A stretch of 28,828 bases of DNA from Armatimonadota bacterium (GTDB lineage Bacteria > Armatimonadota > Zipacnadia > Zipacnadales > UBA5352): positions 1 through 28,828 of the forward strand of contig JAYENL010000210.1 in assembly GCA_034722055.1 (NCBI GenBank), in the 5' to 3' direction. Shown here in pieces: positions 12,001 through 18,000 of the stretch (position 1 is its first letter; every line of letters begins with the position of its first letter). A program made the position numbers.

Positions 12001-15000
12001 TACAACCGCTACGCCGTCAATGTGCTCATCACCCACAAGGGCGAACAGGGCGCGCCGGTGGTCTTCGAGACGAAGCCGAACATCGAGAACCTCACCGGCG
12101 ACATCGAGCACCTCCCTTACATGGGGGCGCTGCTGACCGACTTCACCATGATCAAGGACGGCGCGCTGCATAAGGCCAACGGCGGCTACCTGGTGCTGGA
12201 GGCGCTGACGCTGCTGACCCGCCCCTTCGCCTGGGAGGCGCTGAAGCGGGCGCTGAAGGAGGCGGAGGTGCGCCCCGAGTCCATCCGCGAGCACCTGCGG
12301 CTGGTCTCCACGGTGACCCTGGAGCCTGAGCCGATCCCCCTGGATGTGAAGGTGGTGCTGATCGGCACCCCGCTGCTGTATTACCTGCTGTACGAGCACG
12401 ATGAGGACGTGCAGAAGCTCTTCAAGGTCAAGGCCGACTTCGGCGTGCTGATGGACCGAGACCCGGACTCGCTGCAGAGCTACGCGCACTTCGTGGCCGC
12501 CTGCTGCCATCGGGAGGGCCTGCCGCACTTCGTGCCGGAGGCCGTGGCTCGGGTGGCGGAGGAGGGCGCGCGGCTGTCCGGCGACAGCGAGAAGCTCACC
12601 GCCCACTTCCTGGAGGTGGCCGACCTGGTGCGGGAGGCGGGCTACTGGTGCCAGAAGGCCGCCCAAGACAGGGTGCGGCCCGAGCACGTGGAGCGGGCGG
12701 TGGAGGACAAGATCTGGCGTTCCAACCGCATCGAGGAGCGGCTCCTGGAGCTGATCGAGCAGGGGACGTTGCTCATTGACGCGGAGGGGGAGGTGGTGGG
12801 ACAGGTCAACGGCGTGGCTGTGCTGCCGCTGGGGGACTACGTCTTCGGAAAGCCCACACGCATCACCGCTCGCAGCTTCCTGGGCAAGCCCGGTGTGATC
12901 AACATCGAGCGTGAGGCGGAGCTGGCCGGTCCCATCCACAACAAGGCCACGATGATCCTGGGAGGCTACATCGGGGAGCGGTTCGCAGTGGATTACCCCA
13001 TGAGCGCCGCGGCGACGGTGGCCTTCGAGCAGGTCTACGAGGAGGTGGAAGGCGACAGCGCCGCCGCTGCAGAGCTCTACGCACTGCTCTCGACCATCGG
13101 CCAGGTGCCGCTCCGGCAGGACCTGGCGGTGACCGGGTCCGTGAACCAGCATGGCCACGTGCAGGCGGTGGGTGGCGTCAACGAGAAGACCGAGGGCTTC
13201 TTCGCCGCCTGCAAGCTCTCCGGGCTCACCGGCAACCAGGGCGTCATCATTCCGGCGTCCAACGCCCGCAACCTGATGCTGCGCCAGGAGGTTGTGGACG
13301 CCATCGAGGCCGGGCAGTTCCACGTCTACGCGGTGGAGACCGTTGAGGAGGCTATGGAGCTGCTCACCGGCCTGCCCTTCGGCGAGCGGGATGAGGAGGG
13401 CAACTTCCCGCCGGACACCGTCGGTGCGGCCGTGCAGAAGAGGCTGGAGGAGATGGCCGAGACCCAGCAGCAGTACCGCTCCAGGGGCGAGGAAGCGCTG
13501 GGGCAGTGAGCTCACGGCCCCACATAGAGGGACCGGCGGGCAGTCCCGGGGGGGGAGGACATTCCGCCGGCCCCTTCCTCACGCAGCACTGCCGCGCGAG
13601 GAAAACCTCTTTACGCCTTCATTATACCACGTTGCTGATTGTTCTCAAACTCTTAAGACGAAGCAACGGCGGCAGAGCCGGGGCGGTTCCAAGCACCGGG
13701 AATGCCGCTGCAGCATGCAGACTCGTGTGCCCAGCACGAGGGCCGGGGAGCGGACTGTCGGAATGCCGGTGGTAGGAGGGGAGGGGCCGCCTGAGGCTCC
13801 AGCGTGGTTTGCTGGAGCCGAAGCCGGCCCGGCCGTTCGCCGTTCGGAGCAGGGCCTCGCGACGCTGTCTCGTGGGGTCGCGGGCCGGCTTCGTCGCGCA
13901 TAAAGGGCATGCGCTCCTCAGGCGGCCCCTCCGCGGGCATCGGCGGCGTCAGTACAGAGGACAGGCACATGAATCTGGATGCTGCCGAATGCCGCAAACG
14001 GCTCTTGCAATGCGCCTCGCCATGCTGTATACTATACGTTGAGACAGCTCTCAGAAATTCTCTGGGAGTGGGCCGCTGGCCCACTCCCATTCTTTTCTCG
14101 GGGAACGGGCGTGCGACAGACAGTAGGTCGAGGCAGACGATGAACATACGCAAGCATCCGGTGGTGCGCAAAATCGAGGCCGAAGTCGAACAGACCGTTG
14201 GCGACTTCGGCTATGAGCTGGTGCAGCTCAAGTACGGCGGCGAGGCGGGCGGCAAGACGCTCTCGATTCTGATCGACAGGCCGAAGGGCGTGAGCGCCGA
14301 GGACTGCTGCGACATGAGCCGGCGCCTGTCCATGCTGCTCGACACGCTGGACCCTATTCCCAGCTCCTACACGCTGATCGTCTCGTCGCCCGGGCTGGAC
14401 CGCCCACTGACCCGCGACAGCGACTTGGAGCGCTTCGAGGGAGAGATGGCGGCGGTGAGGCATCCCACCGGGGACGGCGGCTGGCGCACCGACACGGGTG
14501 TCCTGCGGGGTGTACAGGATGGCGAGGTGATCATGGACGTGGACGGCGAGACTCTCCGGGTGCCACTGGCGGAGATAGAGGAGGCTCACCTGGTCTACGA
14601 CTGGGACGCCGAGGAGGCCCAATAGGACCATCAACCTTCCCCCTGGGGGTTGAGTGTGCGATGAACGGTGAATTCATAGAAGCCCTGGAGCAGCTCCAAC
14701 GCGAGAAGGACATCCCGATGAGCGCGCTCATCGAGACGGTGGAGGCCGCTATGGCGTCGGCCTACCGCAAGCACTACGGCGCGAACGATGACGTGCGGCT
14801 GGAGATCGACTTCGAGAACCGCACGGTTCGCATGTTCGCCAAGACGCTGGTCGAGGGGCCGGAGGATGGCAAGGTGCCCGACGACGATCAGACGGCGGGC
14901 GTGCACTACGAGGAGCATGAGGTTGACGCCGCGGAGTTCGGCCGCATCGCGGCCCAGACGGCCAAGCAGGTCGTCATGCAGCGGGTGCGGGAGGCCGAGC

Positions 15001-18000
15001 GCGAGATCGTCTTCGATGAGTTCAGCCATCGCGTCGGCGAGATGATCACCGGCGAGGTGCAGCGCAAGGATGCCCGCAACGCCTTCATCGCCGTGGGGCG
15101 CACCGAGGCGCTGCTGCCTGCCAACGAGCAGATCCCGGGCGAGACCTTCCGGTTTGGGGATCGCCTCAAGCTCTACGTGCTGGACGTGCGCAAGACCACG
15201 CGCAACCCGCAGATTATCCTCTCGCGAAGGCACCCGGGGCTGGTGGTGCGCCTGTTCGAGCAGGAGGTCCCGGAGGTCTACGACGGAGTGGTGGAGATCA
15301 AGTCGGTGGCGCGGGAGGCCGGCGCCCGCTCCAAGGTGGCCGTGATCTCCGGCGATGCGCAGATCGACCCCGTGGGCGCCTGCGTGGGCCACCGGGGGGC
15401 GCGGGTGCAGTCGATCGTGGACGAGCTGCGCGGTGAGAAGATCGACATCGTGCGCTACTCGGAGGACCCATCGGAGTATCTCAAGAGCGCCCTGTCGCCA
15501 GCCAAGGTCTCCCAGGTGCAACTGAATGAGGAGCAGCGCTCAGCGGTGGTGGTGGCTCCGGACGACCAGCTCTCGCTGGCCATCGGCCGGCGCGGGCAGA
15601 ATGTGCGTCTGGCGGCCCAGCTCACCGGCTGGCGCATCGACATTCAGAGCCACACTCAGTGGGAGAGCGAGGCCGAGCGCGCCGCCGAAGAGGAGGCCGC
15701 CGCGGCCGAGGAGGAGGCCAAGCGGGTCCGGGTCTACGAGCTGGCCAAGGAGCTCGAGGTCCCCAGCGCCGAGCTCGTGGAGATCATGCAGGAGGAGGGC
15801 ATGGACGTCACCAGCCACGCCTCCAGCGTGACCGCCGCGGAGGCCGACATCATCCGCGACCTGCTGCTCGGCGGCGAGGGGACGCTGGACGACATCGAGC
15901 TGGGCAACATCGAGATCGAGCTGTGATACCGGCGCGCCAGGCGTGCCATGCAGTGACGGATTGACGTGCGGAGGTGTAGGTCTTGGCAGACCAGGTCCGA
16001 ATCTTCCAGCTTGCCAGGAAGCTAGGGTTGCGTACGCAGGCCCTGCTGAAGGTCCTTGCCGAGCTGGGCGTGGAGGACGTGACCGCGGCCTCGAGCATCG
16101 ACATCGAGACCGCCCGCGCTGCCGCGGAGCTGCTCGCCGAGCAGGCCCGGGAGGCGAAGCAGCGTGCCGAGGAGGAGGCCGCCCGTGCCGAGGCCGAGGC
16201 GGCCGAGGCGGCTGAAGCGGAGGCAGCCGAGGCCGAAGAGGAGGTCGTGGAGGCCGAGGAGGTTCCTGCAGAGGAAGAGGAGGAGCCCGAGGCCGAGGAG
16301 TACGAGGTGGAAGAGGAAGAGGAGGAAGAGGAGGAGTACGAGCGCTTTGTGCCCGCCTGGGCGGCGCCTGAGAGCCTCCGAAGCCTCGAAGAGCAGCTTG
16401 CCGAGCTGGAGGAGGACCTCGAGGAGGAAGAGGAGGAGGTCTACGTCCCCCTCCCCGAGGAGGCCCGCCGGCCCTCCGGCGAGCGTCCCGAGAACGCCAT
16501 CGACGTCCCCCCGGTCGTCTCCGTGCTCGGTCACGTTGACCACGGCAAGACCACCTTGCTCGACGCCCTGCGTGAGACGAACGTGGTGGACAGCGAGTCC
16601 GGCGGCATCACCCAGCACATCGGCGCGTCCGAGGTGCAGGTTGGGGAGCAGACGATCGTCTTCGTGGACACCCCCGGCCACGCCGCCTTCACGGCCATGC
16701 GAGCCCGCGGCGGGCAGGTGGCCGATATTGTGGTGCTGGTGGTGGCCGCCGATGACGCGGTGATGCCTCAGACGGTGGAGGCCATCGGCCACGCCCGGGC
16801 GGCCGGCGTGCCCATCATCGTGGCCATCAACAAGACAGACCTGCCCGGCGCAGACCCCGACCTGGTCAAGCAGGAGCTGCTGGAGCACGAGCTGGTCGCC
16901 GAGGACTACGGTGGGGACACGATCATGGTGCCCATCTCCGCGCTCCAGCGCGAGAACCTGGCCGACCTGCTGGAGATGATCCTGCTGCTGGCAGAGGTCC
17001 AGGAGCTGTGGGCTGACCCCGACGCGCCCTTCACCGGCGTGGTGGTGGAGGCGGGCATGGACGAGAGCCGCGGCCCGGTGGCCACCGTCCTGGTACGCAA
17101 CGGCGAGATCCAGGTGGGCGACGTGGTCATCTGCGGCACCGCCAACGGGCGCGTGCGGCGGCTCAATGACTGGCGGGGCAAGTCCGTCAAGAAGATGGGC
17201 CCGGGCCATCCCGTGGAGGTCATCGGACTCTCGGACGTTCCGGAGGCCGGGCAGATCATGGCCCGGGCCGAGAGCGTCAAGCAGGCCCGGGAGGTGGTCG
17301 CCGAGCGCGAGGAGCAGATCCGCGAGGAGCAGCTTGAGGGCACCGCCCGCGCCTCGCTCCAGGACCTCTACCGGGAGCTGGGCGAGCTGGAGGTCAAGAG
17401 CCTCAACCTCATGCTCAAGGCCGACGTCTGGGGCTCCGTCCAGGCCCTGGAGGGCTCGCTGATGGAGCTGGACGAGCAGCTCGAAGAGGTGGAGATCACC
17501 GTCATACACACCGGCGTGGGCGATGTGACCGAGTCCGACGTGCTCCTGGCCGTGGCCTCCGACGCCATCATCCTGGGCTTCCACGTGGGGGTCCCCGACA
17601 CCGCCGAGCGCACCGCCGAGGCCGAGCACGTGGAGATCCGCACCTACGACGTGATCTACGAGGCCATCGAAGATATCCAGCGCGCCATGGTGGGAATGCT
17701 CGAGCCCATCTACGAGGAGCGCGTGGTCGGTCATGGCCGCGTCCTGCAGACCTTCCGCATCTCGCGGGTGGGCGTGGTCGCGGGGACGGTGGTCACCGAC
17801 GGCTTCGCCCAGCGCGGCGCCGACATGGTGGTCACTCGCGACGGCGAGGTCATCTACGAGGGCGTGCTGGAGTCCCTGAGGCACTTCGACGAGGCTGTGC
17901 GACGTATTGAGGCGCCGAACGAGTGCGGAATCTCCACCGCCGACTTCCGCGGCTGGCAGGAGGGCGACGAGATCGAGTTCCGCGCCAGGGTGGAGGTGCC

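Follow-up and report, generated by a model that had tools for sequence, protein, structure and literature searches.

The rimP-nusA-infB locus

The window, a stretch of 28,828 nucleotides from an Armatimonadota bacterium of the order Zipacnadales (contig JAYENL010000210.1), contains rimP, nusA and infB (Table 1). NusA was identified by its NTD, S1, KH1 and KH2 domains in sequence and by its place within the rimP-nusA-infB operon. Its gene ends in a clean stop, and infB has a separate start. An element resembling the leader hairpin and T-rich run was present at most 200 nt upstream of rimP in 14/20 loci of the class, compared to 1/57 control stretches. A search for RNA holders listed none for the stretch. 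PF04296, the ylxR/rnpM family, was found in 0/63 genomes of the order outside family f47.

Table 1. Features of the locus, in window positions.
Feature	Position	Strand	Remarks
Sigma-70-like promoter match	14005..14033	+	Candidate; upstream of rimP-nusA-infB; 9/12 consensus letters
Hairpin followed by T-rich run	14063..14099	+	Operon leader; candidate attenuator
rimP	14140..14625	+	Pfam RimP_N, DUF150_C
nusA, 421 aa	14661..15926	+	NTD-S1-KH1-KH2-linker-IF2 N1-acidic tail
NusA KH1-KH2, residues 190-330	15228..15650	+	Structural match to 2asb: Z 24.8, rmsd 1.4, 149 aligned
NusA linker, residues 331-353	15651..15719	+	One helix in predicted model
Fused IF2 N1-type domain, NusA residues 354-403	15720..15869	+	Pfam IF2_N at 355-400
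Acidic extension past N1, NusA residues 404-421	15870..15923	+	Starts with Gly-Gly motif
nusA-infB gap, 56 nt	15927..15982	+	ylxR/rnpM gene absent
infB, 682 aa	15983..18031	+	TTG start; single IF2_N domain, no N2
IF2's own N1, residues 4-49	15992..16129	+	F8 replaces Y; S-H motif absent; R17 at the Lys279 position of P. aeruginosa N2

The domain fused to NusA

The genome-wide survey's note had placed an IF2_N domain at the end of NusA, with a single further copy in the adjoining infB, and had matched the tail to Thermus IF2; all of this was borne out. Residues 355-400 of NusA matched Pfam IF2_N (PF04760) with 42.5 bits (cut-off 25.3; E 5.5e-11) and residues 4-49 of the infB product with 34.8 bits, and the genome has no IF2_N match besides these two. 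In the PDB the NusA tail matched residues 3-55 of Thermus IF2 (E 1.9e-5), and the predicted model of the fused domain aligned to the Thermus IF2 N domain (4b3x) with Z 8.6 and rmsd 3.7 over 63 residues at 32% identity. DSSP of two predicted models gave three helices on a small sheet. According to profiles built here from outgroup loci, the domain is of the N1 subtype (median 61.8 bits on N1 versus 9.1 on N2 for 58 NusA copies). The fusion comprises just this N1 of 50 residues and leaves out the GTPase. No AR1/AR2 or helix-hairpin-helix domain was found on NusA by Pfam scan, nor AR1/AR2 in the predicted model. The linker before N1 varies from 17 to 51 residues among 70 NusAs of the class, and the Gly-Gly-led acidic extension (pLDDT 60-70 in the predicted model) is kept in 61/61 fused NusAs of Zipacnadales and in 0/9 of the outer orders.

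The adjacency of nusA and infB, and the loss or degradation of the domain in several lineages, would also fit a harmless passenger left by local duplication or a gene-calling or assembly artefact, and frameshifted long-read products do yield false NusA-IF2 chimeras in databases (P0131, P0134, P0135, P0137-P0139, P0146, P0148, P0152, P0361). Here, however, stop and start are clean and separate, and the fusion recurs in 70 genomes. One contig of sequencing run X3, which shares a study with the possible source runs, spans positions 15256-16266 (KH2, tail, stop codon and infB start) with zero differing letters, and the fusion is thus not an assembly slip. Eight residues (Y359, E360, L361, A362, I375, S385, H386 and S388) are invariant in 98/98 aligned homologues, and the dN/dS of the NusA-borne N1 (0.06-0.15) indicates purifying selection like that on IF2's own N1 (0.09-0.13). 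The invariant residues, the dN/dS and the X3 contig largely refute a passenger or artefact, which we consider very improbable.

Distribution and origin

The fusion had been described as class-wide, and this holds for 70/72 complete NusAs of class Zipacnadia (76 nusA loci taken from 79 class genomes), three of them with a degenerate domain; the exceptions are two single-genome families in which it is absent and family f47 in which it is degenerate. PF04760 was present on 120/120 NusA homologues among the matches listed, as reported earlier. None of the 326 matched Armatimonadota genomes outside the class carried the fusion. The survey's note had allowed that some of the other 400 genomes might hold it, and we found it in a second phylum, Margulisiibacteriota (30/59 loci), in Saganbacteria, Margulisbacteria and Marinamargulisbacteria. 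In Margulisbacteria it was lost several times, which together with its degeneration in f47 indicates that the domain is dispensable.

In other phyla, the NusA tails of the 80 matches listed all stayed at or below 5 bits against the N1 profile (unfused NusAs from a scan of named genomes with KH2-only patterns, class members being absent among these matches). The search of 1.84 billion representatives covered the best 150 of 10,967 matches, and more divergent fusions elsewhere are possible. All IF2_N clusters obtained from the ESM Atlas were small, at 0.83-0.85. Apparent fusions in records resembling Nitrospira, Acidobacteria and Actinomycetes proved to be frameshift chimeras or duplicated reads. 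An IF2_N domain that may occur on actinobacterial RNase E was not confirmed: none was seen in the five genomes searched, nor in further searches.

A single clade of all NusA-borne N1 domains was not rejected by the AU test (p 0.16; 50 columns, two long rows dropped), and neither was a sister grouping of the NusA cores of both phyla (p 0.51; 128 rows thinned to 69, again without two long rows). Since neither grouping was rejected, convergence, ancient inheritance and old transfer are all compatible with the data. No description of a NusA-IF2 N1 fusion was found in the literature searched. The distribution is wider than first reported, and the division of features between the two copies is new here.

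Division of features between the NusA and IF2 copies

In Zipacnadales (residue counts leave out f47), the ancestral Y-E and S-H residues remain on NusA but have vanished from IF2: Y, H or W occupies position 359 in 58/58 NusA copies versus 0/55 IF2 copies, and the [ST]H motif is divided in the same way (58/58 versus 0/55). The IF2 of unfused relatives has the aromatic/His site in 32/36 and [ST]H in 29/36 cases. On the outgroup N1 profile the NusA copy outscores the IF2 copy of the same genome in 52/55 pairs. The IF2 of Zipacnadales also lacks the N2 ribosome anchor, and its N1 has gained K, R or Q at one site (55/55), the position where N2 contacts rRNA. We rejected the idea that this N1 turned into N2, as it is still N1 by sequence (median 49.6 versus 6.8 bits); f47, f50 and f51, where N2 is gone but the basic residue has not been acquired, also count against it. 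A basic residue at the Lys279-equivalent position is found in 0/58 NusA copies of Zipacnadales and 8/29 of Margulisbacteria. The N2 domains of nine Armatimonadota relatives likewise lack it, and the feature is thus not universal. In the outer orders of the class, IF2 retains the S-H motif in 7/9 genomes although NusA already bears N1.

Margulisbacteria show the same aromatic/His split (26/29 NusA copies versus 0/22 IF2s of fused loci). IF2 there is without N1 in 5/27 fused loci with infB in view, compared to 0/27 loci without an intact NusA copy, and the tree reduces these five cases to two events. The NusA copy scores below the IF2 copy on the outgroup profile in 21/22 pairs, and the S-H motif is present in 0/29. 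YlxR/RnpM was considered as a ligand of this motif and rejected, since genomes that best preserve the motif have no ylxR, whereas f47, which has lost the motif, has the gene.

It is improbable, though less so than a passenger or artefact, that the altered N1 of IF2 is bound by the NusA copy or by the extension of that copy, restoring an IF2-NusA bridge without AR1. In Zipacnadales each copy has diverged and is conserved in its new form (mean identity 0.65 for NusA and 0.60 for IF2, versus 0.52 for unfused N1), and the NusA copy is acidic while the IF2 copy has the K, R or Q gained at one site. However, a recognisable N1 persists on NusA in the five Margulisbacteria loci with N1-less IF2, and a role of the gained residue as rRNA anchor explains its position equally well. 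Slightly more credible, but still unlikely, is that the tail stands in for AR2, the acidic N1 and extension binding a basic RNA polymerase surface such as the alpha-CTD and strengthening or activating NusA on the elongation complex. The tail occupies the position of AR1/AR2, AR2 binds the alpha-CTD (according to PMC12297416), the alpha-CTD of the class retains basic motifs, and the copy has a mean net charge of -5.6 in Zipacnadales in addition to its conserved acidic extension. In Margulisbacteria, on the other hand, the copy is near neutral (+0.9), the linkers are lysine-rich and the extension is missing, and none of the reports consulted ties IF2 N1 to the alpha-CTD.

Taken together, the reciprocal changes in IF2, which hold most of the mechanistic information, suggest that the transcription-translation link was rewired from IF2 onto NusA.

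A possible partner of the fused domain

In E. coli, Domain I of IF2alpha forms a complex with NusA (Metelev and Johansson 2025, PMC12297416), and the survey's note had read the fusion as its Rosetta-stone counterpart. The part that stands is that the fusion ties NusA and IF2 N1 to one process: the NusA C-terminal end and IF2 N1 are shared, as is the adjacency of the genes in the operon. In contrast, the E. coli complex, as described in that source, is a transient two-protein contact that requires the AR1/AR2 tail and carries the whole IF2, while here N1 alone is covalently attached to a NusA without AR1/AR2 and the N1 of IF2 is altered or lost. Because only N1 is fused, the fusion cannot itself tether the GTPase of IF2 to NusA and does not represent the E. 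coli bridge in covalent form. With binding of N1 to NusA of the E. coli kind, the fused copy would rather block IF2 than recruit it.

Such blocking is what would follow if the fused N1 folds in cis onto its own KH2 (or S1/KH1), at the site bound in trans by the N1 of IF2, as a built-in switch of NusA resembling the autoinhibitory AR2 of E. coli; the out-competed IF2 copy would then decay. This literal Rosetta-stone reading, which we regard as rather unlikely, simply explains why IF2 loses the surface or the whole N1 only where NusA bears N1, and it agrees with the direct binding of Domain I to NusA and the modelled N1-KH2/AR1 interface in PMC12297416. However, IF2 keeps its motif in 7/9 fused outer-order genomes, and AR1/AR2, needed for the E. 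coli binding, are absent. A co-variation screen of the NusA core columns that both fused groups conserve gave no clear surface change in six groups without the canonical N1 they once had: 98 of the 130 columns did not change in any of the six, and 7 differed in two or three of them, mostly by conservative swaps. This screen is weak, since RNA binding limits variation in the core. The predicted KH1-KH2-N1 model (pLDDT 92.6) has a pTM of 0.72, close to the share of the chain taken by the KH unit and linker (164/232), and these scores, an indirect measure, give no sign of fixed N1-KH docking.

The explanation we tentatively prefer is that the fused N1 is a flexible arm joining RNA polymerase-bound NusA to the ancestral partner of N1, probably the 30S subunit. 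N1 would have been copied from the adjoining infB onto the end of nusA, after which the copies may have split the work. The NusA copy would retain the ancestral binding surface, presumably made up by the conserved Y-E opening helix 1 and S-H-x-S in the wing. Hanging past KH2 on a flexible linker, it could let polymerase-bound NusA grip the partner formerly reached from IF2, so that the transcription complex would be joined to the initiating ribosome with IF2 bypassed. A partner other than NusA itself is favoured by the S-H motif kept in outer-order IF2 despite the fused NusA and by the missing AR1/AR2. The ribosome is favoured because N2, of the same fold, docks onto h16 of the 16S rRNA and is overlaid at 1 A by the Thermus N domain, which among solved structures is the closest match (reported in PMC9192638), and because N1 truncation slows the recruitment of IF2 to 30S (reported in 10.64898/2026.06.26.734871). 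Binding of h16 in the manner of N2 is unlikely given the negative charge and the lack of a basic residue at the Lys279 site, and the acidity of the copy makes a ribosomal protein a more likely 30S contact than rRNA.

Several observations speak against this flexible-arm explanation. The partner of Domain I seen in E. coli is NusA and not the ribosome, the slow-diffusing state of isolated Domain I being gone upon deletion of the NusA tail (PMC12297416). The N1-less IF2s amount to two events only, the Margulisbacteria NusA copies mostly score below their IF2 counterparts and lack S-H, and the domain is dispensable.

Among known systems, the IF2_N family (Thermus 4b3x; N2 of E. coli and P. aeruginosa IF2) shares with the NusA copy a score above the Pfam cut-off and the three-helix winged fold, with Y and S-H as in Thermus, but the NusA copy is located C-terminally in a transcription factor, is acidic and lacks the h16-contacting basic residue of N2. 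The IF2 N1 of Thermus and Bacillus subtilis is of a related type. NusAs with AR1/AR2 (helix-hairpin-helix) tails likewise have an extra folded domain after KH2, though of unrelated fold. RfaH and NusG bridge RNA polymerase and the ribosome via a KOW domain on uS10 (described in PMC12820379); like NusA, they are transcription factors whose flexibly attached extra domain may reach the 30S, a contact that we infer for the N1 tail.

How general the IF2-NusA link is was left unclear by its discoverers in the account given in PMC12297416, as neither protein end is conserved, and N1 was unresolved in the E. coli initiation structures examined. That two phyla bear N1 on NusA, divide the conserved residues between both copies and in some loci have an N1-less IF2 indicates that N1 can work from the transcription side. 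Whichever the partner, its identity would tell the purpose of N1 and whether the link serves to tether IF2 or to control NusA, and the sorted conserved residues mark candidates for mutation. More speculatively, and with doubt similar to that attached to folding in cis, N1 could be a portable ribosome-docking module that was transferred from IF2 to NusA on two or more occasions, in separate phyla, and that gave NusA a direct, IF2-independent link between RNA polymerase and the initiating 30S, with the leftover N1 of Zipacnadales IF2 reshaped to replace the lost N2 anchor. If so, nature would have carried out domain swaps in these lineages that reveal the long-unknown ligand of N1.

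Architecture and distribution

A NusA that ends in an N1-type domain of IF2 is an undescribed architecture, real and under selection in two phyla, and reciprocal changes in IF2 make the role of N1 testable. The genome-wide survey's note had placed IF2_N on NusA, with infB following directly, and both points held: Pfam IF2_N covers NusA residues 355-400 with 42.5 bits against a cut-off of 25.3, and infB starts 56 nt past the nusA stop with a single IF2_N at residues 4-49, in the gene order rimP-nusA-infB-DUF503-rbfA-DHH-truB-ribF. A genome search for IF2_N gave no match beyond these two. 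The tail's match to Thermus IF2 residues 3-55 was likewise recovered (E 1.9e-5). In the AlphaFold2 model a helix (331-353) leads into a confident three-helix domain (354-403) and a short, weaker helix, and alignment of model residues 354-416 with 4b3x gave Z 8.6 and rmsd 3.7 over 63 residues; this Z is middling, and the sequence match backs the fold assignment. The NusA and IF2 copies are 32% identical over 38 aligned residues, so the duplicate is not a recent one. A contig from another run covers KH2 to the infB start with zero differences, and the homologues carry the label Armatimonadota or candidate division WS1 in their source records.

Features of the window by position
Feature	Position	Strand	Description
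LonC-like gene to rimP interval	13621-13648	minus	near-consensus promoter match, 11/12
rimP-nusA leader	14005-14099		promoter-like site, then 12-pair hairpin and T-rich run
nusA	14661-15926		421 aa; NTD, S1, two KH domains, then Pfam IF2_N
Extension of NusA past N1	15870-15923		acidic, Gly-Gly
nusA-infB gap	15927-15982		ylxR/rnpM absent
IF2 N1-to-G linker	16140-16510		very glutamate-rich
Upstream of ffh	21682-21711	+	near-consensus promoter match, 11/12

Among 401 genomes (53 of the class Zipacnadia, 348 outside), a profile of the KH2 end plus N1 scored 145-186 bits in 50 of the 53; outside the class 326 of 348 matched it, with a maximum of 84 bits that reflects the KH2 part alone. Loci fetched from 76 of the 79 class genomes were fused in 70 cases and unfused in two (families f8 and f48), while three were cut by contig ends and one held no nusA. 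Three of the 70 belong to family f47, whose degenerate NusA copies reach a median of 15 bits against an N1 profile; a Pfam scan of an f47-like protein gave no IF2_N. The fusion had been called class-wide, which describes most loci but not f8, f48 or the decayed f47. The linker ahead of NusA N1 is 17-51 residues long. In four families dN/dS, from simple pairwise counts near saturation, was 0.06-0.15 for the NusA copy, 0.09-0.13 for IF2 N1 and 0.05-0.06 for KH2. The acidic Gly-Gly extension occurs in 61/61 members of the order Zipacnadales, and because even f47 keeps it, it may have a separate partner of its own.

Long matches beyond the class were present among the best 150 of 10,967 in a representative search. 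Two of these led to 93 NusAs. PF04760 is present on every one, and those with a name are almost entirely labelled Saganbacteria or Margulisiibacteriota; one, P0361, appears chimeric. Of 120 marine relatives, Marinamargulisbacteria among them, 57 reached at least 20 bits. In 59 Margulisbacteria-like metagenome loci, picked by a group-typical motif and assigned to the phylum from the tree, 29 NusAs carry a full N1, and in a further locus the sequence breaks off within the domain. These loci form their own group in a quick NusA-core tree with no inferred root, and unfused subgroups nest within fused groups, a pattern that we take to reflect repeated loss. AU tests did not reject a single origin, either with all NusA-borne N1 domains as one clade (p 0.16) or with the two phyla's NusA cores as sisters (p 0.51).

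No paper on a NusA-IF2_N fusion appeared in the literature listings covered, which include few subscription journals. The text read of preprint 10.64898/2026.02.08.704698, to which the survey's note had pointed, contains neither 'fusion' nor 'Armatimonad', its Extended Data organism lists possibly including such taxa; it reports that the length of the IF2 N-terminus correlates weakly and negatively with that of the NusA C-terminus (r -0.18). Further background came from parts of PMC1780047, PMC3663118, PMC4611024, PMC11622646 and PMC6514570. Public proteins already show the fusion in their precomputed Pfam annotation, so it is unremarked rather than hidden.

Division of features between NusA and IF2

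In outgroup IF2, N1 has an aromatic residue or His ahead of the helix 1 E-L-A (32/36) and [ST]H in the wing (29/36). Within the order, f47 aside, both motifs are on the NusA copy in 58/58 but on that of IF2 in 0/55. Among outer-order genomes they are on NusA in 9/9 and still on IF2 in 7/9. A moved N1 that keeps the ancestral surface while its donor loses it suggests that the ancestral job is done from the new host. Margulisbacteria carry the His/aromatic site on NusA in 26/29, and on IF2 in 0/22 fused and 1/24 unfused loci; the S-H motif is there on neither copy. In five fused loci (L193, L200, L204, L216, L227) IF2 has N2 but no N1 between its start and the G domain. The fused loci that include infB number 27, so the share is 5/27, compared with 0/27 for the other loci, and the five represent only two events on the tree.

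IF2 N2 is gone throughout the order (54/54 complete N-termini) as well as in f50 and f51, and is retained in f52, f6, f8, f48 and, weakly, f7. In P. aeruginosa, Lys279 touches 16S h16 (PMC9192638, in part). IF2 N1 of the order carries K/R at the corresponding position in 41/55 cases and K/R/Q in 55/55, compared with K/R in 0/58 NusA copies and 2/36 outgroup N1 domains. These residues hint that the leftover N1 took over anchoring; however, N2 and the basic residue are both missing in f47, f50 and f51, and Armatimonadota N2 does not have that residue either (0/9).

Across the order the IF2 N1-G linker shares a motif that directly precedes the G domain, in the place expected for N2. A conserved gene of ~230 aa occupies the nusA-infB interval in the Margulisbacteria-like loci L193, L200, L204, L208 and L216, in four of which IF2 lacks N1. 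Protein P0214 (119 aa) is built from a pair of near-identical N1 domains plus a short basic tail, and may be a stand-alone gene or an infB fragment.

Proposed origin and role

We infer that the infB 5' end was duplicated locally and that a deletion then joined the duplicated N1 to nusA, with ylxR staying downstream in the outer orders. With f47 set aside, ylxR/rnpM is absent from 63/63 genomes of the order, and it is also absent from four of f6; it is present in 3/4 of f47, with its degenerate N1, and in the remaining outer families.

Domain I of E. coli IF2 binds directly to NusA; the interface has been modelled as N1 against KH2/AR1, and removal of AR1/AR2 abolishes the binding (PMC12297416, in part). 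A fused N1 is unable to carry the IF2 GTPase, so it would be bound in cis or reach a third partner. Binding in cis would account neatly for the decay of the IF2 copy, but we consider it rather unlikely: a fragment model, with pTM 0.72 and pLDDT 92.6, did not point to a fixed docked position (an indirect reading), and in a weak screen across six groups no core column clearly followed canonical N1 loss. Our tentative preference, held at somewhat under even odds, is for a third partner, most likely the 30S, because the motif persists on IF2 in most genomes of the outer orders although NusA is fused, and because NusA lacks AR domains. The 30S is favoured since this fold is known to bind the 30S shoulder (PMC9192638, PMC12820379) and since recruitment to the 30S is slower when N1 is truncated (10.64898/2026.06.26.734871), all three sources consulted in part. 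Against the 30S stand the acidity of the NusA copy (-5.6) and the NusA-dependent binding shown by E. coli Domain I on its own. That the NusA tail binds the RNA polymerase alpha-CTD seems improbable, as does pairing of NusA N1 with IF2 N1.

Leader hairpin and other observations

A hairpin with a shared stem lies 5' of rimP in 14/20 class loci compared with 1/57 controls. The leader hairpin is a candidate NusA-sensitive attenuator for autoregulation, as in Bacillus subtilis, a parallel that a search did not confirm. Besides rpoA, extra alpha-CTD-like repeats were seen in long open frames of four class genomes (G324:C112, G067:C54, G104:C184 and G257:C573, as genome:contig).
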